Assembly (NCBI RefSeq): GCF_002854065.1
Contig: NZ_CP024147.1
Strand: one strand, 5' to 3'
Length of the DNA stretch: 64,000 nucleotides
From: Escherichia coli
GTDB lineage: Bacteria; Pseudomonadota; Gammaproteobacteria; Enterobacterales; Enterobacteriaceae
This document shows positions 28,616 through 60,924 of this stretch, one piece after another; position 1 is the first letter of the stretch; every line of letters begins with the position of its first letter. Below the pieces are notes generated by a model. That model made no database searches. It was not told the origin of the DNA and was given only the letters and a program-made list of their open reading frames with translations. The position numbers were made by a program, and so were the translations under genes.

Positions 28616-29401
28616 ATGCAGGATCGCAATTTTGATGATATTGCGGAAAAGTTTTCCCGTAACATTTACGGCACCACCAAAGGGCAGCTTCGACAGGCTA
28701 TTCTGTGGCAGGATCTCGATCGCGTGCTGGCGGAAATGGGTCCGCAAAAACTGCGTGTGCTGGATGCGGGCGGTGGAGAAGGGCAGACCGCAATCAAAAT
28801 GGCCGAGCGCGGGCATCAGGTCATTTTATGCGATCTTTCTGCGCAGATGATCGACCGCGCAAAACAGGCGGCAGAAGCAAAAGGTGTGAGCGACAACATG
28901 CAATTTATACATTGCGCCGCTCAGGATGTTGCTTCGCATTTGGAAACGCCCGTTGATCTGATATTGTTCCATGCGGTGCTCGAGTGGGTGGCTGATCCCC
29001 GCAGCGTATTGCAGACCCTGTGGTCAGTGTTGCGTCCAGGCGGCGTGTTGTCGTTAATGTTCTACAATGCGCATGGTTTGTTGATGCATAACATGGTCGC
29101 CGGGAATTTTGATTACGTGCAGGCGGGAATGCCGAAAAAGAAAAAACGGACGCTTTCGCCAGATTATCCACGCGACCCGGCGCAGGTTTATCTGTGGCTG
29201 GAAGAAGCTGGTTGGCAAATTATGGGTAAGACAGGCGTTCGCGTGTTTCATGATTATCTGCGCGAGAAGCACCAGCAGCGCGACTGCTATGAAGCATTAC
29301 TTGAATTAGAAACGCGTTATTGCCGTCAGGAACCGTATATTACCCTGGGGCGTTATATTCATGTCACCGCGCGCAAACGGCAGAGCAAGGATAAAGTATG
29401 A
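28616..29401 (+). CDS. cmoM: SAM-dependent tRNA methyltransferase
   Basis: Start at [17 protein letters not shown]-binding motif VLDAGGGEG; stop overlaps the mukF start. Confidence 0.8.
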
Positions 29402-30720
29402 GTGAATTTTCCCAGACAGTCCCCGAACTGGTTGCCTGGGCCAGAAAAAATGACTTCTCCATCTCGCTGCCGGTAGACCGACTCTCTTTTCTGCTGGCGG
29501 TTGCCACGCTGAACGGCGAGCGTCTGGATGGTGAGATGAGTGAAGGCGAGCTGGTGGATGCATTCCGCCATGTGAGTGATGCGTTTGAGCAAACCAGCGA
29601 AACCATCGGCGTGCGCGCCAATAACGCGATCAACGACATGGTGCGTCAACGTCTGCTGAACCGCTTTACCAGCGAGCAGGCAGAAGGGAACGCAATTTAC
29701 CGTCTGACGCCGCTCGGCATCGGCATTACTGACTATTACATCCGTCAGCGCGAGTTTTCTACGCTGCGCCTTTCTATGCAGTTGTCGATTGTGGCGGGTG
29801 AGCTCAAACGCGCAGCAGATGCCGCCGAAGAGGGCGGTGATGAATTTCACTGGCACCGTAATGTCTATGCGCCACTGAAATATTCGGTAGCAGAAATTTT
29901 CGACAGTATCGACCTGACGCAACGTCTGATGGACGAACAGCAGCAGCAGGTGAAGGACGATATCGCCCAGTTGCTGAACAAAGACTGGCGGGCGGCGATT
30001 TCCAGCTGTGAATTGTTGCTTTCGGAAACTTCCGGAACGCTGCGTGAATTGCAGGATACACTGGAAGCGGCAGGCGACAAATTGCAGGCTAATCTGTTGC
30101 GCATTCAGGATGCGACGATGACTCATGACGATCTGCATTTTGTCGATCGTCTGGTGTTCGATCTGCAGAGCAAACTCGACCGTATTATCAGTTGGGGCCA
30201 GCAATCCATCGACTTGTGGATTGGCTACGACCGCCACGTACACAAATTTATTCGTACCGCGATCGATATGGATAAAAACCGCGTCTTTGCTCAGCGGTTA
30301 CGTCAGTCGGTACAAACCTATTTTGATGAGCCGTGGGCGCTAACTTATGCCAATGCCGATCGTCTGCTGGATATGCGTGACGAAGAGATGGCACTGCGCG
30401 ATGAAGAAGTGACTGGGGAACTTCCGCCAGATTTGGAATACGAAGAGTTTAACGAGATCCGCGAACAGCTGGCGGCGATCATCGAAGAACAACTTGCTGT
30501 GTACAAAACCAGACAAGTGCCGCTGGATCTTGGTCTGGTGGTACGCGAATATCTGTCACAGTATCCGCGTGCACGTCACTTTGACGTTGCGCGCATTGTT
30601 ATTGATCAGGCGGTACGTCTTGGCGTAGCGCAAGCAGATTTCACCGGACTGCCAGCGAAATGGCAGCCGATTAATGATTACGGAGCCAAGGTACAGGCGC
30701 ATGTCATCGACAAATATTGA
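29398..30720 (+). CDS. mukF: condensin kleisin subunit MukF
   Basis: 440-aa [28 protein letters not shown]... Confidence 0.9.
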
Positions 30721-31405
30721 ACAAGTGATGCCGGTTAAGCTGGCGCAGGCGCTGGCGAATCCGTTATTTCCGGCGCTGGACAGCGCCTTACGTTCAGGCC
30801 GCCATATTGGCCTCGACGAACTGGATAATCATGCATTCCTGATGGATTTTCAGGAATATCTGGAAGAGTTTTACGCGCGTTATAACGTTGAGCTTATTCG
30901 TGCACCGGAAGGGTTCTTCTATTTACGTCCACGTTCCACCACGCTGATCCCTCGTTCCGTCTTGTCGGAACTGGATATGATGGTCGGGAAAATCCTCTGT
31001 TATCTCTATCTCAGCCCGGAACGGCTGGCGAATGAGGGGATTTTTACTCAACAGGAACTGTACGACGAACTGCTCACCCTGGCCGATGAAGCGAAACTGC
31101 TGAAACTGGTGAACAACCGTTCAACCGGTTCAGACGTTGACCGTCAGAAGTTGCAGGAAAAAGTACGTTCTTCGCTCAACCGTCTGCGTCGTTTAGGCAT
31201 GGTGTGGTTTATGGGCCACGACAGCAGCAAGTTTCGCATTACCGAATCGGTGTTCCGCTTCGGAGCCGATGTGCGTGCTGGCGACGATCCCCGTGAAGCA
31301 CAGCGTCGCCTGATTCGTGATGGCGAAGCAATGCCGATTGAAAATCATCTGCAACTCAACGATGAAACCGAAGAGAATCAGCCAGATAGCGGAGAGGAAG
31401 AATAA
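30701..31405 (+). CDS. mukE: condensin subunit MukE
   Basis: ATG at 30701 ([21 protein letters not shown]) gives 234 aa; overlaps the mukF 3' end; acidic C-terminus. Confidence 0.85.
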
Positions 31406-34400
31406 TGATTGAACGCGGTAAATTTCGCTCACTGACGCTGATTAACTGGAACGGCTTTTTTGCCCGAACTTTTGACCTTGACGAGCTGGTCACGACGCTT
31501 TCTGGCGGTAACGGGGCGGGTAAATCCACCACCATGGCGGCGTTCGTTACGGCGCTGATCCCCGACCTGACCCTGCTGCATTTCCGTAACACTACGGAAG
31601 CCGGGGCCACCAGCGGTTCGCGCGATAAAGGTCTGCACGGTAAGCTGAAAGCGGGTGTCTGTTATTCGATGCTCGACACCATTAACTCGCGCCACCAGCG
31701 CGTGGTGGTCGGTGTGCGTCTGCAACAGGTTGCCGGACGCGATCGTAAAGTGGATATCAAACCATTTGCCATTCAGGGACTGCCGATGTCGGTGCAGCCG
31801 ACACAGCTGGTGACCGAAACTCTGAACGAACGCCAGGCGCGCGTGCTGCCGCTTAACGAGCTGAAAGACAAGCTCGAGGCAATGGAAGGCGTGCAGTTTA
31901 AACAGTTCAACTCCATTACCGATTACCACTCGCTGATGTTCGATCTGGGCATCATCGCGCGTCGTCTGCGCTCCGCATCTGACCGTAGCAAATTCTATCG
32001 TCTGATCGAAGCTTCGCTGTATGGCGGGATCTCCAGTGCCATTACCCGTTCTCTGCGCGACTACCTGTTGCCGGAAAACAGCGGCGTGCGTAAAGCGTTC
32101 CAGGACATGGAAGCGGCGCTGCGTGAAAACCGCATGACGCTGGAAGCGATTCGTGTCACCCAGTCGGACCGCGACCTGTTTAAGCATCTGATTAGCGAAG
32201 CCACCAACTACGTGGCGGCGGACTACATGCGTCACGCCAACGAGCGCCGTGTCCATCTCGACAAAGCCCTGGAGTTTCGTCGCGAGCTACACACTTCGCG
32301 TCAGCAACTGGCGGCTGAGCAGTACAAACACGTCGATATGGCGCGTGAGCTGGCAGAGCACAACGGTGCCGAAGGCGATCTGGAAGCGGATTATCAGGCG
32401 GCCAGCGATCACCTGAACCTGGTGCAAACCGCACTGCGTCAGCAGGAGAAGATCGAACGTTACGAAGCGGATCTCGATGAGCTGCAGATCCGTCTGGAAG
32501 AGCAAAACGAAGTGGTGGCAGAAGCCATCGAACGCCAGGAAGAGAACGAGGTTCGTGCGGAAGCTGCCGAACTGGAAGTGGACGAGCTGAAAAGCCAGCT
32601 TGCTGACTACCAGCAGGCGCTGGACGTCCAGCAAACGCGCGCGATCCAGTATAACCAGGCGATTGCTGCGCTTAATCGCGCCAAAGAATTGTGTCATCTG
32701 CCGGACTTAACCGCCGACAGCGCCGCCGAATGGCTGGAAACCTTCCAGGCGAAAGAGCTGGAAGCGACTGAAAAAATGCTCACTCTTGAGCAGAAAATGA
32801 GCATGGCGCAAACCGCGCACAGCCAGTTTGAGCAGGCTTATCAGCTGGTGGTGGCAATCAACGGCCCGCTGGCGCGTAACGAGGCGTGGGATGTCGCTCG
32901 CGAACTATTGCGCGAAGGGGTCGATCAGCGTCACCTGGCAGAGCAGGTTCAGCCGTTGCGGATGCGCTTAAGTGAACTGGAACAGCGTCTGCGCGAGCAG
33001 CAAGAAGCTGAGCGTCTGCTGGCAGATTTCTGCAAACGTCAGGGCAAGAATTTTGATATTGATGAACTGGAAGCTCTGCATCAGGAGCTGGAAGCACGCA
33101 TTGCCTCTCTTTCCGATAGCGTATCTAACGCCCGTGAAGAGCGGATGGCACTGCGGCAGGAACAGGAACAGCTGCAGTCTCGCATTCAGAGTTTGATGCA
33201 GCGTGCGCCGGTTTGGCTGGCAGCGCAAAACAGTCTCAACCAGTTGAGCGAACAGTGCGGCGAAGAGTTCACCTCCAGCCAGGACGTCACCGAATTCCTG
33301 CAACAGCTGCTGGAGCGTGAGCGCGAAGCCATTGTTGAACGCGATGAAGTGGGCGCGCGCAAAAACGCTGTCGATGAAGAGATCGAACGTTTAAGCCAGC
33401 CTGGCGGCTCTGAAGACCAGCGTCTGAATGCGCTGGCGGAGCGTTTTGGCGGCGTGCTGCTGTCAGAAATTTATGATGACGTTAGCCTGGAAGATGCGCC
33501 GTACTTCTCAGCGCTGTATGGCCCGTCACGCCACGCCATCGTGGTGCCAGATCTGTCACAGGTAACTGAACACCTGGAGGGCTTGACCGATTGCCCGGAA
33601 GATCTCTATTTGATCGAAGGGGATCCGCAGTCATTCGATGACAGCGTGTTCAGCGTTGATGAGCTGGAAAAAGCGGTAGTGGTGAAAATCGCCGATCGTC
33701 AGTGGCGTTATTCACGTTTCCCGGAAGTGCCGCTGTTTGGTCGTGCTGCGCGTGAAAGCCGTATTGAAAGCCTCCATGCCGAGCGTGAAGTGCTTTCCGA
33801 ACGCTTCGCCACGCTCTCCTTTGATGTACAGAAAACCCAGCGTCTGCATCAGGCGTTCAGCCGCTTTATCGGCAGTCATCTGGCGGTGGCGTTTGAGTCT
33901 GACCCGGAAGCAGAAATCCGTCAACTGAACAGCCGTCGCGTCGAACTGGAGCGGGCGTTGAGTAATCATGAAAATGATAACCAGCAGCAGCGTATTCAGT
34001 TTGAGCAGGCGAAAGAAGGCGTTACGGCGCTGAACCGCATTCTGCCGCGTCTCAACCTGTTGGCTGATGACAGCCTGGCGGATCGCGTCGATGAAATCCG
34101 CGAACGTCTGGATGAAGCCCAGGAAGCCGCGCGTTTTGTTCAGCAGTTTGGCAATCAACTGGCGAAACTGGAACCGATCGTTTCGGTATTGCAGAGCGAC
34201 CCGGAACAGTTCGAACAGTTAAAAGAAGATTACGCGTACTCTCAGCAGATGCAGCGCGATGGCCGTCAGCAGGCGTTTGCCCTGACGGAAGTGGTGCAGC
34301 GTCGTGCGCACTTTAGCTATTCTGACTCGACAGAAATGCTTAGCGGTAACAACGATCTCAACGAAAAACTGCGTGAACGTCTGGAACAGGCGGAAGCGGA

Positions 34401-50895: not shown

Positions 50896-51851
50896 AATTG
50901 TTTTCCTTCCAGTTGAGTGGGCTGCCAGATGCGTTGGCGAATATCGACTTTTTTCGGCACCAGACGGTTTTCATAAAACAGATCTGCCGTTTGCTGCTGT
51001 AAGGCGGCAACCTCGGCGTTAACCGGTTTGATGGTGGTAGGTGGGCGATGATCTAAGTAAGAGGCAATCACCGGTGCCGGTAAGCCCATCGTTTTTGCCA
51101 GTAAAGCGATGCTTTGCTCGCGCTGGCTGCGGGTTAACGCATCGGCCTCACTAAAGGTTGCCAGTACACCCTGAATAAAAGCGCCGTTTTTTTCTGCATA
51201 GGGGCGAGCTGCCAGATAAAACGCTCCGGTTTGATTGAGATCGGTGCCGTCTTTCAACACCCGCACGCCGCCCTGTAATAATGCAGCGGAGTAGTAGGGA
51301 TCCCAGATAGCCCAGGCGTCAACGTTACCTTGCTGGAACGCGGCGCGGGCATCAGCTGGCGTCAGATAAGTAGGCTGGATGTCAGTAAACTTAAGTCCGG
51401 CCTGGCGTAGTGCGCGCAGTAAAAGATTGTGTGAACTGGAACCTTTCTGGAACGCAACTTTGTGGCCTTTAAGATCGGCTACGGTTTTGATCGGGCTGTT
51501 TTCTGCCACCAGAATCACCTCGGCTTTTGGCTTTGGCGGCTCGACGCCCACATATACCAAATCAGCCCCGGCAGCCTGGGCAAAGATTGGCGGAATATCC
51601 CCGGTACTGCCGAGATCAATACTGCCAACGTTTAACGCCTCAAGCATTTGCGGGCCAGCGGGGAACTCCACCCACGAGATTTTTGTTTGCGGATAGCGTT
51701 TTTCCAGCATTTGGTAATTTTTCGCCAGCACCGAACTGATGTTGCTTTTCTGATAGCCAATCCTTAACGCCTCTGGCGAAGACTCTGCGGCAACCGCGAG
51801 TGTAGAGACGCTAAGTAAACCCGCTAGCGCCAGTTTAATGATCTTACGCAT
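50892..51851 (-). CDS. ssuA: aliphatic sulfonate periplasmic binding protein
   Basis: Start at [21 protein letters not shown] (signal peptide), 319 aa; overlaps the ssuE stop. Confidence 0.85.
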
Positions 51852-52419
51852 GGGCATTACCTCGCAGAGAATGAAGATCAGGAACCTGAACATCGCGGCG
51901 GTGCAATGCCTGCCAGAAAGTTTCTAGCGCGGTATCAAGACGGGTTTGTAAATTCGGCGTGAACTGGGGTTTGTGATGGTAATCAATTACTTGTGAGTCA
52001 TCGGCAAACACGCCGTGCAGGATCTCCTGGGCTTTCAGCGCACTTAAAACTGGCTTAAGGGCATAATCGACCGCCAGCAGATGGGCCACCGTACCGCCCG
52101 TCGCCAGCGGTAGCACCACTTTGCCTTGCAACGCACGTTCTGGCAGCAGGTCGAGCAGGGTTTTCAGCGCACCGGAATAGGCGGCTTTATACACAGGCGT
52201 GGCGACAATCAGCCCGTCAGCCTGTTGCAACTGTTCGGTGAAGGTATTGAGTGCCGGACTATCGAAACGAGCATAAAGCAGATCTTCCGCGGCGAAGTTT
52301 TGCAGATTCCAGTGATAAACCTCTACATCCAGGCCATTTAGTTTTTCCCGCGCATATTCCAGCAAGGAGCTGGAGCGAGAAGGAAAGCGAGGACTACCCG
52401 CCAGGGTGATGACACGCAT
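51844..52419 (-). CDS. ssuE: NAD(P)H-dependent FMN reductase
   Basis: 191-aa [30 protein letters not shown]...; first gene of the ssu operon. Confidence 0.85.
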
Positions 52420-52774
52420 ACTCTCTCCTTATAACCAATTGTTCTTGTTTTGTTAACATTGATAACAATTCGCTCAGTCTGTCGGAGAGACAAGAAAATG
52501 CCAAATATAAATTTTGTGTATCTTTTTCTGAAAATAAACTAAAGAAAGGGCTTTATATATCACGCATATTTATTTATTGGATAGTCATTAGATGTTGAAT
52601 CAATGAATTACTCGTTCAGGTAATATTTAAATATTCATGAAATCTATAAATTAAAGATTTGTCACTTATTGGATTTAGTATGCTTGATTTAAATGGCGGA
52701 CAATTATTGTTATTATTAAGTCTAATGTCATTTAAAGGCATTATCATATTTACGAAGAGATCAGGATGATAACG

Positions 52775-53314
52775 ATGAAAAAAAGTGTATTGACGGCGTT
52801 TATAACTGTGGTATGTGCAACGTCCAGTGTTATGGCAGCTGATGATAATGCTATCACGGATGGTTCAGTAACATTTAATGGTAAAGTTATTGCTCCAGCT
52901 TGTACCCTGGTCGCTGCGACGAAAGATTCCGTGGTGACTTTGCCAGATGTTAGTGCCACGAAGTTGCAAACCAATGGTCAGGTTTCTGGCGTGCAAACTG
53001 ATGTGCCAATTGAATTAAAAGATTGTGATACTACCGTAACAAAAAATGCAACGTTCACCTTTAATGGCACTGCGGATACTACTCAGATTACAGCGTTTGC
53101 TAACCAGGCCTCATCTGATGCTGCTACAAACGTGGCCCTGCAAATGTATATGAATGATGGTACAACGGCCATCACGCCAGACACAGAAACCGGGAACATT
53201 TTGTTGCAGGATGGAGATCAGACGTTGACTTTTAAAGTTGATTATATCGCTACGGGGAAAGCGACTTCAGGTAATGTGAATGCGGTAACAAATTTCCATA
53301 TTAACTATTATTAA
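52775..53314 (+). CDS. elfA: fimbrial major subunit
   Basis: Start at MKKSVLTAFITVVCATSSVMA (signal peptide); fimbrillin-like, Cys pair near N-terminus. Confidence 0.8.
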   Translation: MKKSVLTAFITVVCATSSVMAADDNAITDGSVTFNGKVIAPACTLVAATKDSVVTLPDVSATKLQTNGQVSGVQTDVPIELKDCDTTVTKNATFTFNGTADTTQITAFANQASSDAATNVALQMYMNDGTTAITPDTETGNILLQDGDQTLTFKVDYIATGKATSGNVNAVTNFHINYY

Positions 53315-53346
53315 TAGAACTCATTAATTGTTTTGTTAATTAGTAC

Positions 53347-53382
53347 CCCTCCAGTGTTCTGGAGGGGATATTCATATTTTTT
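53347..53382 (+). terminator. hairpin after elfA major subunit gene (likely partial terminator)
   Basis: CCCCTCCAG-tgtt-CTGGAGGGG, then a T-run 8 nt downstream. Confidence 0.5.
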
Positions 53383-53396
53383 AAGAGTGACTATTT

Positions 53397-54098
53397 ATGA
53401 AAACTTGCATAACAAAGGGAATTGTGACCGTAAGTTTAACGGCAATATTACTCAGCTGCTCATCCGCATGGGCGGCAGGTAAAGGCGGGATTGGACTTGC
53501 AGCAACACGTCTTGTTTATTCAGAAGGTGAAGAGCAAATTTCACTGGGTGTACGTAACACCAGTCCGGATGTTCCTTATCTGATTCAGTCATGGGTGATG
53601 ACCCCAGATAATAAAAAATCAGCAGACTTTATTATTACACCACCGCTATTTGTGCTGAATCCGGCTAATGAGAATCTGTTACGCATTATGTACATTGGTG
53701 CGCCGTTGGCGAAAGACAGAGAAACTCTTTTCTTCACTAGCGTACGGGCAGTCCCTTCAACAACGAAGCGGGAAGAAGGCAATACCCTGAAGATTGCCAC
53801 ACAAAGCGTCATCAAACTTTTCTGGCGACCAAAAGGTTTAGCGTATCCCTTAGGCGAGGCTCCGGCGAAACTGCGTTGCACTTCGTCAGCTGACATGGTT
53901 ACGGTCAGTAACCCAACACCTTATTTCATTACCCTGACAGACCTGAAAATAGGTGGAAAGGTAGTTAAAAATCAAATGATTTCCCCCTTTGATAAATACC
54001 AATTCTCTCTGCCAAAGGGTGCCAAAAATAGCAGCGTAACGTATCGAACCATCAATGACTACGGGGCGGAAACGCCGCAACTCAACTGTAAATCGTAA
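53397..54098 (+). CDS. elfD: periplasmic pilus chaperone
   Basis: 233-aa ORF with signal peptide, recognised as a PapD-like chaperone. Confidence 0.85.
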   Translation: MKTCITKGIVTVSLTAILLSCSSAWAAGKGGIGLAATRLVYSEGEEQISLGVRNTSPDVPYLIQSWVMTPDNKKSADFIITPPLFVLNPANENLLRIMYIGAPLAKDRETLFFTSVRAVPSTTKREEGNTLKIATQSVIKLFWRPKGLAYPLGEAPAKLRCTSSADMVTVSNPTPYFITLTDLKIGGKVVKNQMISPFDKYQFSLPKGAKNSSVTYRTINDYGAETPQLNCKS

Positions 54099-54122
54099 TT
54101 CGTCTTCAGTTAAGAGAGCGAG

Positions 54123-54587
54123 ATGTATAGAACTCACCGACAACACAGCCTGTTAAGCTCTGGTGGCGTGCCATCGTTTATTGGTGGGCTGGTGGTGTTT
54201 GTGTCGGCAGCGTTCAATGCACAAGCTGAAACCTGGTTCGATCCAGCCTTTTTCAAAGATGATCCCTCAATGGTGGCCGATTTGTCTCGTTTCGAAAAAG
54301 GACAAAAAATAACGCCAGGGGTTTATCGTGTCGATATTGTTCTGAATCAGACAATTGTAGATACGCGCAACGTCAATTTTGTTGAGATAACGCCAGAGAA
54401 GGGGATTGCCGCCTGTTTGACGACTGAAAGCCTGGATGCAATGGGCGTGAATACTGATGCATTTCCGGCTTTTAAACAACTGGACAAACAAGCGTGTGCG
54501 CTATTGGCGGAGATTATTCCGGATGCCAGCGTAACTTTTAATGTGAATAAACTCCGTCTGGAAATTTCAGTACCGCAAATTGCCATC
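54123..54587 (+). pseudogene. elfC: fimbrial usher, N-terminal fragment interrupted by IS2
   Basis: ORF starts MYRTHRQHSLLSSGG... and is stopped by TAG 54588-54590, the first three bases of the inserted IS2. Confidence 0.8.
54583..54587. repeat. IS2 target-site duplication (CCATC), left copy
   Basis: CCATC immediately precedes the IS2 end and recurs at 55919-55923. Confidence 0.8.
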
Positions 54588-54629
54588 TAGACTGGCCCCC
54601 TGAATCTCCAGACAACCAATATCACTTAA
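54588..54629. repeat. IS2 terminal inverted repeat (transposase-proximal end)
   Basis: Imperfect match to the reverse complement of 55877-55918, sharing TCCAGACA and ATCACTTAA blocks. Confidence 0.6.
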
Positions 54630-54678
54630 ATAAGTGATAGTCTTAATACTAGTTTTTAGACTAGTCATTGGAGAACAG

Positions 54679-55044
54679 ATGATTGATGTCTTAGGGCCGG
54701 AGAAACGCAGACGGCGTACCACACAGGAAAAGATCGCAATTGTTCAGCAGAGCTTTGAACCGGGGATGACGGTCTCCCTCGTTGCCCGGCAACATGGTGT
54801 AGCAGCCAGCCAGTTATTTCTCTGGCGTAAGCAATACCAGGAAGGAAGTCTTACTGCTGTCGCCGCCGGAGAACAGGTTGTTCCTGCCTCTGAACTTGCT
54901 GCCGCCATGAAGCAGATTAAAGAACTCCAGCGCCTGCTCGGCAAGAAAACGATGGAAAATGAACTCCTCAAAGAAGCCGTTGAATATGGACGGGCAAAAA
55001 AGTGGATAGCGCACGCGCCCTTATTGCCCGGGGATGGGGAGTAA
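54679..55044 (+). CDS. insC: IS2 OrfA / InsC (HTH DNA-binding)
   Basis: 121 aa [56 protein letters not shown]... Confidence 0.9.
54996..55002 (+). promoter_or_regulatory. A6G slippery heptamer (programmed -1 frameshift site of IS3-family transposase)
   Basis: AAAAAAG at the insC/insD overlap, where the insD frame opens. Confidence 0.6.
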
Positions 55045-55907
55045 GCTTAGTCAGCCGTTGTCTCCGGGTGTCGCGTGCGCAGTTGCACGTCATTCTCAGA
55101 CGAACCGATGACTGGATGGATGGCCGCCGCAGTCGTCACACTGATGATACGGATGTGCTTCTCCGTATACACCATGTTATCGGAGAGCTGCCCACGTATG
55201 GTTATCGTCGGGTATGGGCGCTGCTTCGCAGACAGGCAGAACTTGATGGTATGCCTGCGATCAATGCCAAACGTGTTTACCGGATCATGCGCCAGAATGC
55301 GCTGTTGCTTGAGCGAAAACCTGCTGTACCGCCATCGAAACGGGCACATACAGGCAGAGTGGCCGTGAAAGAAAGCAATCAGCGATGGTGCTCTGACGGG
55401 TTCGAGTTCTGCTGTGATAACGGAGAGAGACTGCGTGTCACGTTCGCGCTGGACTGCTGTGATCGTGAGGCACTGCACTGGGCGGTCACTACCGGCGGCT
55501 TCAACAGTGAAACAGTACAGGACGTCATGCTGGGAGCGGTGGAACGCCGCTTCGGCAACGATCTTCCGTCGTCTCCAGTGGAGTGGCTGACGGATAATGG
55601 TTCATGCTACCGGGCTAATGAAACACGCCAGTTCGCCCGGATGTTGGGACTTGAACCGAAGAACACGGCGGTGCGGAGTCCGGAGAGTAACGGAATAGCA
55701 GAGAGCTTCGTGAAAACGATAAAGCGTGACTACATCAGTATCATGCCCAAACCAGACGGGTTAACGGCAGCAAAGAACCTTGCAGAGGCGTTCGAGCATT
55801 ATAACGAATGGCATCCGCATAGTGCGCTGGGTTATCGCTCGCCACGGGAATATCTGCGGCAGCGGGCTTGTAATGGGTTAAGTGATAACAGATGTCTGGA
55901 AATATAG
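55002..55907 (+). CDS. insD: IS2 OrfB / InsD (DDE transposase catalytic domain)
   Basis: 301-aa ORF in the -1 frame relative to insC ([34 protein letters not shown]...). Confidence 0.9.
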
Positions 55908-55918
55908 GGGCAAATCCA
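55877..55918. repeat. IS2 terminal inverted repeat (distal end)
   Basis: Reverse complement matches 54588-54629 imperfectly. Confidence 0.6.
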
Positions 55919-59120
<3,202 letters not shown>

Positions 59121-59131
59121 CGCGTGAACGT

Positions 59132-59674
59132 ATGAAGAAAAAAACGATATTTCAGTGCGTTATCTTGTTCTTTAGCATTCTTAACATCCATGTCGGGATG
59201 GCTGGGCCTGAACAAGTTAGTATGCATATTTATGAGAATGTGGTCGATCAGGGCTGTGATGTCGCCACCAAAAGTGCATTACAAAATATTCATATTGGCG
59301 ATTTTAATATCAGTGATTTTCAGGCCGCGAATACCGTAAGCACTGCTGCTGATTTGAATATCGATATCACCGGTTGTGCCGCTAGTATTACTGGCGCGGA
59401 CGTCCTTTTTAGCGGCGAGGCTGACACCCTTGCACCGACACTGCTCAAACTAACTGACACAGGCGGAAGCGGTGGTATGGCAACAGGGATTGCCGTGCAA
59501 ATTCTTGATGCGCAAAGTCAGCAAGAAATCCCGCTCAATCAGGTCCAGCCTCTTACGCCCTTAAAAGCCGGGGATAACACACTCAAATATCAACTTCGTT
59601 ATAAGTCCACAAAGGCGGGAGCAACGGGCGGTAATGCGACGGCGGTTCTCTATTTTGATCTGGTTTACCAGTGA
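59132..59674 (+). CDS. ycbU: fimbrial-like subunit
   Basis: 180-aa ORF with signal peptide; fimbrillin-like. Confidence 0.75.
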   Translation: MKKKTIFQCVILFFSILNIHVGMAGPEQVSMHIYENVVDQGCDVATKSALQNIHIGDFNISDFQAANTVSTAADLNIDITGCAASITGADVLFSGEADTLAPTLLKLTDTGGSGGMATGIAVQILDAQSQQEIPLNQVQPLTPLKAGDNTLKYQLRYKSTKAGATGGNATAVLYFDLVYQ

Positions 59675-59681
59675 AGGAGTG

Positions 59682-60149
59682 ATGTTGAAACGGATAATCT
59701 GGATTCTGTTCTTACTGGGATTAACGGGGGGCTGTGAGCTATTTGCCCATGATGGCACGGTCAACATTAGCGGATCGTTTCGCCATAATACATGCGTGCT
59801 GGCACAGGATAGCAAGCAAATCAATGTGCAGTTAGGCGATGTCTCGCTGACACGTTTTTCTCATGGGAATTATGGCCCGGAGAAATCTTTCATCATTAAT
59901 TTGCAGGATTGCGGAACAGATGTCAGCACGGTTGACGTCACCTTTTCAGGAACCCCCGACGGAGTGCAGAGCGAAATGTTGTCCATTGAAAGTGGTACGG
60001 ATGCAGCCAGCGGGCTGGCAATTGCGATTCTGGATGATGCGAAGATATTGATTCCGCTTAACCAGGCGAGTAAAGACTACAGCCTACATAGCGGTAAGGT
60101 GCCATTAACTTTTTATGCGCAATTGCGACCTGTCAATAGCGATGTGTAG
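59682..60149 (+). CDS. ycbV: fimbrial-like subunit
   Basis: Start MLKRIIWILFLLGLTGGCELFA; fimbrillin-like. Confidence 0.7.
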   Translation: MLKRIIWILFLLGLTGGCELFAHDGTVNISGSFRHNTCVLAQDSKQINVQLGDVSLTRFSHGNYGPEKSFIINLQDCGTDVSTVDVTFSGTPDGVQSEMLSIESGTDAASGLAIAILDDAKILIPLNQASKDYSLHSGKVPLTFYAQLRPVNSDV

Positions 60150-60189
60150 TCTGGTAAAGTGAATGCCAGCGCGACATTTGTACTTCATT

Positions 60190-60900
60190 ATGACTAATAC
60201 GTGGAACAGATTGTCGCTCTTGATTTTCGCCGTTTTATCGCTGCTGGTGGCGGGTGAATTGCAGGCAGGAGTGGTGGTCGGCGGAACGCGATTTATCTTT
60301 CCGGCAGACAGAGAATCGATATCTATTTTACTGACTAATACCAGTCAGGAATCCTGGCTTATTAACAGTAAAATCAACCGCCCAACGCGTTGGGCCGGAG
60401 GTGAAGCGTCGACAGTGCCAGCACCATTACTGGCCGCTCCGCCACTTATTCTCCTGAAGCCCGGTACGACAGGCACGTTGCGCTTGCTGAGAACGGAAAG
60501 CGACATCTTGCCTGTGGATCGCGAAACGCTCTTTGAGTTAAGCATTGCCAGCGTGCCATCCGGCAAAGTTGAAAATCAGAGCGTAAAAGTGGCGATGCGC
60601 TCGGTATTTAAACTGTTCTGGCGACCCGAAGGTTTGCCGGGCGACCCGCTGGAAGCTTATCAACAATTACGCTGGACACGGAAGTCGCAGGGTGTACAAC
60701 TCACTAACCCAACGCCTTATTACATTAACCTGATTCAGGTGAGCGTAAATGGTAAAGCGTTAAGTAATGTGGGAGTTGTGCCGCCTAAAAGCCAGCGTCA
60801 GACAAGCTGGTGTCAGGCAATAGCACCGTGTCATGTTGCCTGGCGGGCGATAAATGATTACGGCGGGTTGAGTGCAAAGAAGGAGCAAAATCTGCCCTGA
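60190..60900 (+). CDS. ycbF: periplasmic pilus chaperone (second chaperone of the cluster)
   Basis: Start MTNTWNRLSLLIFAVLSLLVA (236 aa); PapD-like; paralogous in layout to elfD. Confidence 0.75.
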   Translation: MTNTWNRLSLLIFAVLSLLVAGELQAGVVVGGTRFIFPADRESISILLTNTSQESWLINSKINRPTRWAGGEASTVPAPLLAAPPLILLKPGTTGTLRLLRTESDILPVDRETLFELSIASVPSGKVENQSVKVAMRSVFKLFWRPEGLPGDPLEAYQQLRWTRKSQGVQLTNPTPYYINLIQVSVNGKALSNVGVVPPKSQRQTSWCQAIAPCHVAWRAINDYGGLSAKKEQNLP

Positions 60901-60908
60901 AACAGGTT

Positions 60909-60924
60909 CGGAAAACGTTTGCGT
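60909..60924 (+). promoter_or_regulatory. PurR box upstream of pyrD
   Basis: cGGAAAACGTTTGCGt with the palindromic AAACGTTT core, about 90 bp upstream of the pyrD ATG. Confidence 0.5.

Follow-up and report, generated by a model that had tools for sequence, protein, structure and literature searches.

The spacer between ssuE and elfA in Escherichia coli carries, on its plus strand, a 14-codon mini-ORF preceded by a Shine-Dalgarno-like (SD-like) motif, and we conclude, with a probability of about 0.9, that this is a non-functional chance frame lying antisense to the core promoter and activator region of ssuE. We infer that it is not translated; the DNA beneath it would work as promoter DNA for the leftward-transcribed ssuE. 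A first-pass annotation of the window (the whole 64-kb stretch of DNA analysed here) had called the mini-ORF most likely coincidental, and this judgement is borne out by its position within the promoter, by the variability of its start codon and by the location of the elfA start sites.

Sequence and setting of the mini-ORF

Read directly from the sequence, the start codon ATG occupies 52498-52500 and is followed by 13 sense codons and the stop codon TAA at 52540-52542, so that every coordinate given in the first-pass annotation, including the GGAGAG motif and its 8-nt gap to the ATG, matches the sequence. The divergent flanking genes are likewise as described there, with ssuE on the minus strand and elfA on the plus strand (Table 1). 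The gap between GGAGAG and the ATG (52490-52497) becomes 10 nt when counted from the GGAG core, a spacing that is usable, if slightly long, and that counts against a chance origin. The spacer (52420-52774, 355 bp) has a GC content of 27.9%, falling to 20% in the mini-ORF, and is 100% identical to that of E. coli O145 strain RM9872. Among the 5,437 places that match the spacer, four are on records labelled as plasmid rather than chromosome.

Table 1. Features of the ssuE-elfA spacer and its surroundings, in window coordinates, with allele frequencies among complete E. coli genomes.
Feature	Position	Strand	Details
ssuE CDS (NADPH-dependent FMN reductase)	51844..52419	-	Flanks the spacer
ssuE transcription start site	52470 (+/-1 nt)	-	Transferred from K-12 by the RegulonDB distance of 51 nt
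ssuE -10 hexamer CAGACT (putative)	52476..52481	-	-11..-6
SD-like motif GGAGAG	52484..52489	+	Reads CTCTCC on the minus strand, in the spacer of the putative ssuE promoter, -14..-19
elf segment, 8,423 bp (mini-ORF, elf promoter, elfADCG-ycbUVF)	52488..60910		Replaces 69 nt of the ssuE-pyrD spacer; junction mapping
IS1 target site	52493..52500		AGAAAATG, or AGAAAATT on the K-12-type allele; hit twice independently in natural isolates
14-codon mini-ORF (MPNINFVYLFLKIN + TAA)	52498..52542	+	Judged a chance ORF
ATG at the start codon	52498-52500	+	2,588/5,426 complete E. coli genomes
ATT at the start codon	52498-52500	+	1,369/5,426 complete E. coli genomes, including K-12 (MG1655, DH1)
Spacer missing	beyond ~52487		~1,400/5,426 genomes; match limited to the first ~60-68 nt
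ssuE -35 hexamer TTGGCA (putative)	52499..52504	-	-34..-29; 17-nt spacer
Region upstream of the ssuE -35 (mini-ORF body)	52505..52542	-	-35..-72; predicted LysR-type activator (Cbl/CysB) region
elfA promoter TTTAAA-17-TATTAT with extended TG, and EDL933 start site 52723	52688..52723	+	Promoter prediction; Cappable-seq
elfA CDS (fimbrial major subunit)	52775..53314	+	Flanks the spacer

Overlap with the ssuE promoter

RegulonDB v10.5 places the K-12 start site of ssuE 51 nt from the start codon, and Cappable-seq in EDL933 gives a distance of 2 nt (Zehentner et al. 2023, PMC10469882 Table S5). Window positions equal EDL933 positions minus 1,161,897, and the absolute coordinates of the EDL933 rows confirm the convention by which these distances are counted. 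The K-12 start site, transferred to the window, is accompanied by a -10/-35 pair with a 17-nt spacer. The hexamers are putative assignments made from the start-site distance: the -10 hexamer, 6-11 nt upstream of the start site, is in register with a conserved CA(G/C)ACT block of other genera, and the -35 hexamer, which reads TTGGAA in the K-12 allele, matches the consensus at five of six positions. A second pair returned by a consensus scan, TTCAGA-17-TATATT (52532..52504), was rejected as the ssuE promoter, as it predicts a start at ~52497 and not at the RegulonDB position of ~52470.

Measured on this promoter, the mini-ORF with its stop codon spans -28 to -72, and its ATG runs into the -35 hexamer; this upholds the earlier placement of the feature inside the ssuE promoter region of the opposite strand. 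The 13 codons cover -31 to -69 and the stop codon reaches -72. Position 52500 is the G of the ATG on the plus strand and, on the minus strand, the C that stands fifth in the -35 hexamer; it is this C that creates the ATG. The complement of the ATG would thus supply the last two bases of TTGGCA and the first base of the promoter spacer, while the complement of GGAGAG would form a pyrimidine-rich part of that spacer just upstream of the -10 hexamer.

In K-12 the ssuEADCB promoter is of the sigma-70 type; the LysR-type regulator Cbl activates it and CysB modulates it. In work from 1999 by van der Ploeg and colleagues, Cbl is said to bind just upstream of the -35 element of the ssu promoter in K-12. 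Cbl would be expected to bind in the same place in the window, over the body of the mini-ORF, and the interval that the activator should occupy at a Cbl-dependent promoter (-31 to -72) is that of the 13 codons and stop codon. Footprint coordinates for the ssuE promoter were not found in the literature searched.

Thirteen genomes with an ancestral-type spacer, drawn from 10 genera and two divergent E. coli lineages, were aligned across this region. They share a conserved ssuE-promoter architecture, TTAT.C..TTT...GC..T.......C..ATAAATCATTT.G, lying over the mini-ORF interval, and to judge from the sequence the conserved interval would comprise the -35 element and a LysR-type activator region. 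The E. coli promoter segment is not alignable to the ancestral spacers by BLAST; of the 24 positions conserved across genera, the mini-ORF interval agrees in register with 14, compared with a mean of 7.9 in shuffled sequences (P ~0.007).

The IS1 target in Table 1 carries insertions of IS1B and IS1A at one 8-bp site, in opposite orientations and on different alleles, in the unrelated isolates CNR85I8 (L090) and PRO_A-1462-6M-A_ESBL (L091). Both insertions split the ssuE -35 from the -10, and across the 55-nt stretch that holds the target the match is partial in about six genomes altogether.

Variation within E. coli

Alleles of the start codon were counted with 55-nt megablast queries carrying the variable base at position 28, each 28-mer seed spanning that base. 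The ATG and ATT counts together come to 3,957, compared with 3,962 genomes that have the whole spacer. ATG is the majority allele among elf-bearing strains, which counts against the chance interpretation. The two elf-bearing alleles that diverge most (strains 98218 and 103) have G at the third base of the start codon, and G at 52500 is probably ancestral, with the T of the K-12 clade probably derived.

Eight alleles of the mini-ORF were found, with five variable sites: the start codon (G/T), synonymous sites at I4 and L11, I13M and N14S. Two of these changes are therefore synonymous and three are not (start loss, I13M and N14S). Four of the five sites fall at third codon positions, another point against a chance origin. 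Coding constraint had been considered when the pattern stood at four third-position sites out of four; the case was weakened by further alleles, by the second-position change N14S and by three of the five changes being non-synonymous. Across the eight alleles there is no sign of purifying selection on the peptide.

Conservation of the reading frame, which the first-pass annotation had proposed as a check, was not found: 1,369 genomes have ATT, and the DNA itself is missing from ~1,400 more and from other genera. Conservation of the stretch within E. coli would reflect promoter function rather than coding. Nothing is annotated at the mini-ORF in MG1655, DH1, Sakai or the other RefSeq records examined, and this includes the curated MG1655 record, where validated small proteins are annotated. 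In-frame extensions to 30 aa, in three variants, are absent from a collection of 15 billion proteins.

The elf insertion and the ancestral spacer

The junctions of the elf segment lie at 52487/52488 and 60910/60911, the right one adjoining a PurR-box-like sequence, GAAAACGTTTGCG, upstream of pyrD. In elf-less E. coli (for example SF-166 and HS13-1) ssuE stands directly beside pyrD and the entire elf operon is missing. In a scan of one genome per species, ssuE and pyrD stood as a divergent pair, usually separated by ~240 bp, at about 55 loci of other genera, including Citrobacter, Enterobacter, Klebsiella, Kosakonia, Erwinia and Serratia, as well as in two divergent 'E. coli' lineages. This adjacency across genera indicates that the elf-less state is ancestral and that the mini-ORF lies within an insertion that only some E. 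coli carry. In the other genera examined, nothing upstream of ssuE corresponds to the island-specific spacer DNA or to the peptide.

Homology with the ancestral spacer, as kept in elf-less E. coli, runs out at about -14 to -18 of the ssuE promoter, inside a CT.TG motif that lies next to the -10 hexamer on its upstream side and is at least 80% conserved across genera. Upstream of about -14, the remaining, distal half of the promoter in E. coli is elf-island DNA and not ancestral spacer; strains that carry elf have their -35 hexamer and presumed Cbl site in island-derived DNA of 26% GC (52484-52556, minus strand). This half may have arrived with the island as a diverged homologous promoter, or it may be the product of convergence.

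A fimbrial subunit gene resembling elfA (54% identity) also lies immediately upstream of ssuE in Pseudocitrobacter (loci L020 and L024, ~1981-2529), and the 471-bp spacer there does not significantly resemble the window's island-specific DNA. Chaperone-usher operons may integrate repeatedly at the ssuE-pyrD spacer. In O157:H7 Sakai the elf operon downstream of the spacer is partly decayed, the usher gene (elfC homologue, ECs_1023; 28690-31289 of locus L005) and ycbF (33442-34130 of that locus) both being annotated as pseudogenes. SlyA binds the 355-bp spacer in vitro, and the H-NS regulon includes both operons that flank it (PMC5797941).

Chance expectation

We defined an equivalent feature as an ATG-initiated ORF of 14-50 codons, on either strand, with an AGGA, GGAG or GAGG core 4-11 nt upstream. 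When the 355-bp spacer was shuffled 5,000 times with its dinucleotides preserved, at least one such ORF occurred in 11.4% of the shuffles, and in 16% with the lower length limit set at 10 codons. The 64-kb window itself contains 27 ORFs of this type with 10-50 codons, or ~0.21 per kb per strand. A mini-ORF with an SD-like motif and an ATG is no more than chance gives. At 20% GC the codons of a frame would specify N, I, F, K, Y and L, and brief stretches free of stop codons would arise readily.

Transcription and translation across the locus

The start-site distances recorded for elfA are 103, 60 and 54 nt in K-12 (RegulonDB) and 52 nt in EDL933 (Cappable-seq; both in PMC10469882 Table S5), corresponding to window positions 52672, 52715 and 52721 for K-12 and 52723 for EDL933. 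All four lie 130-181 nt downstream of the mini-ORF stop codon, and the EDL933 site (1214620) coincides with the predicted elfA promoter.

Among the EDL933 start sites listed, for eight conditions, none falls at 52422-52722 (EDL933 1214319-1214619) on either strand, an absence that is suggestive only, and no plus-strand promoter-like site is predicted upstream of the mini-ORF. The only plus-strand source among those listed is an antisense start site at the 5' end of ssuA (window 51766, EDL933 1213663), active in all eight conditions, which lies 732 nt upstream of the mini-ORF and points through ssuE. No intrinsic terminator is predicted between this site and the mini-ORF, so plus-strand RNA could reach the frame, and this too counts against the chance interpretation.

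The mini-ORF of O157:H7 Sakai lies at 1127064-1127108 on the plus strand (EDL933 1214395-1214439) and is identical to that of the window. RIBOseq of Sakai in rich media reported 465 ORFs, all of at least 30 aa (Hücker et al. 2017, PMC5597208), with no reported gene between 1,093,345 and 1,149,544; a frame of 14 codons falls under the 30-aa cutoff, and for that reason its absence is only weak evidence. An in-frame extension to 30 aa from a TTG codon (52450-52542) was within the scope of that survey and is not among the ORFs reported. A preprint on initiation profiling in K-12, which has the ATT allele, does not mention the locus. The mini-ORF shows neither conservation beyond close strains nor, among the start sites listed and the promoters predicted, a dedicated promoter on its own strand.

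Alternative explanations

The first-pass annotation had flagged the feature because short leader peptides often lack annotation, and the mini-ORF does lie upstream of elfA on the same strand. On these grounds it might govern the elf fimbrial operon as a leader peptide or upstream ORF, through attenuation or translational coupling, which we consider extremely improbable. All mapped elfA start sites are downstream of its stop codon, so the mini-ORF is outside the elfA mRNA leader and a role as the elfA leader peptide is excluded. The stop codon is also 232 nt from the elfA start, the frame has no runs of regulatory codons, no terminator-like site occurs on the plus strand in 52300-52900 and no antiterminator structure follows the mini-ORF. 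RNA structure at 52455-52560 is no more stable than in shuffled sequences (z = -0.36), and an Rfam scan of 51800-53400 gave no match at E values up to 1. Nor is the start codon kept wherever elf is present: ATT occurs in 1,369 elf-bearing genomes, and in K-12, where it is lost, H-NS and SlyA still regulate elf (PMC5797941).

Slightly less remote, and still improbable, is a lineage-restricted micropeptide or 'proto-gene' translated in strains with the ATG allele (O157:H7, O145), either by read-through from the antisense start site at 51766 or from an unmapped promoter. The SD-like motif and the ATG found in 2,588 genomes would permit it, as would a plus-strand start site 732 nt upstream that was active in all eight EDL933 conditions with no predicted terminator before the ORF, and 14 codons would have passed under the Sakai RIBOseq cutoff. 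These points are set against a start codon that has gone from 1,369 genomes with no other change, the lack of visible purifying selection, the absence of start sites between ssuE and 52723 among those listed, an in-frame 30-aa extension that received no RIBOseq call in Sakai, and the high rate at which such ORFs arise by chance. An untranslated antisense RNA of 700 nt is moreover expected to be terminated by Rho before the mini-ORF. Translation by the 51766 read-through route in ATG-allele strains, which make up about half of E. coli (O157 and O145 among them), is for its part highly unlikely; were it to occur, the product would be a young, lineage-specific hydrophobic micropeptide, or else ribosome loading over the ssuE -35/Cbl region would couple antisense transcription to occlusion of the ssuE promoter. 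A different proposal, compatible with a chance ORF and not in competition with it, is that the G/T difference at 52500 matters through the strength of the ssuE promoter (TTGGCA versus TTGGAA), the ATG being a by-product of the allele closer to consensus. We hold this only tentatively, as something that may be so but more probably is not. Position 52500 is hexamer position 5, which is C in the consensus TTGACA, and the alleles divide the elf-bearing population 2,588 to 1,369; against this, an activator-dependent promoter may tolerate a change at one -35 position, and the hexamers themselves were placed by start-site distance.

Significance and comparison with known systems

As a candidate gene the mini-ORF is unimportant, being one of many chance frames with an SD-like motif and an ATG in AT-rich, H-NS-bound intergenic DNA, and the ssuE promoter beneath it is already characterised. 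It is useful as a negative example, in that promoter elements, when read on the other strand, can mimic a start codon and its ribosome-binding site: a promoter spacer rich in pyrimidines reads as an SD motif and the end of a -35 hexamer as ATG. The island-derived distal half of the ssuE promoter and the recurrent IS1 target are of modest interest in their own right.

Three known systems bear comparison with the locus. The trpL, pheL and hisL leaders resemble the mini-ORF in its 14-codon length, its SD motif and its position upstream of an operon on the same strand; the mini-ORF differs in lying outside the operon transcript, in its unconserved start codon and in having no regulatory codon run, terminator or antiterminator. 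With the 'proto-gene' ORFs detected by RIBOseq in EHEC (Hücker et al. 2017) it shares a short, AT-rich and lineage-restricted frame, a weak SD motif and an O157-like genome, but it is below the 30-aa cutoff of that study and is not one of the 465. The ssuEADCB promoter of K-12 is the same locus and, apart from a few SNPs, the same DNA; at the fifth base of the -35 hexamer, the window has C where K-12 has A.
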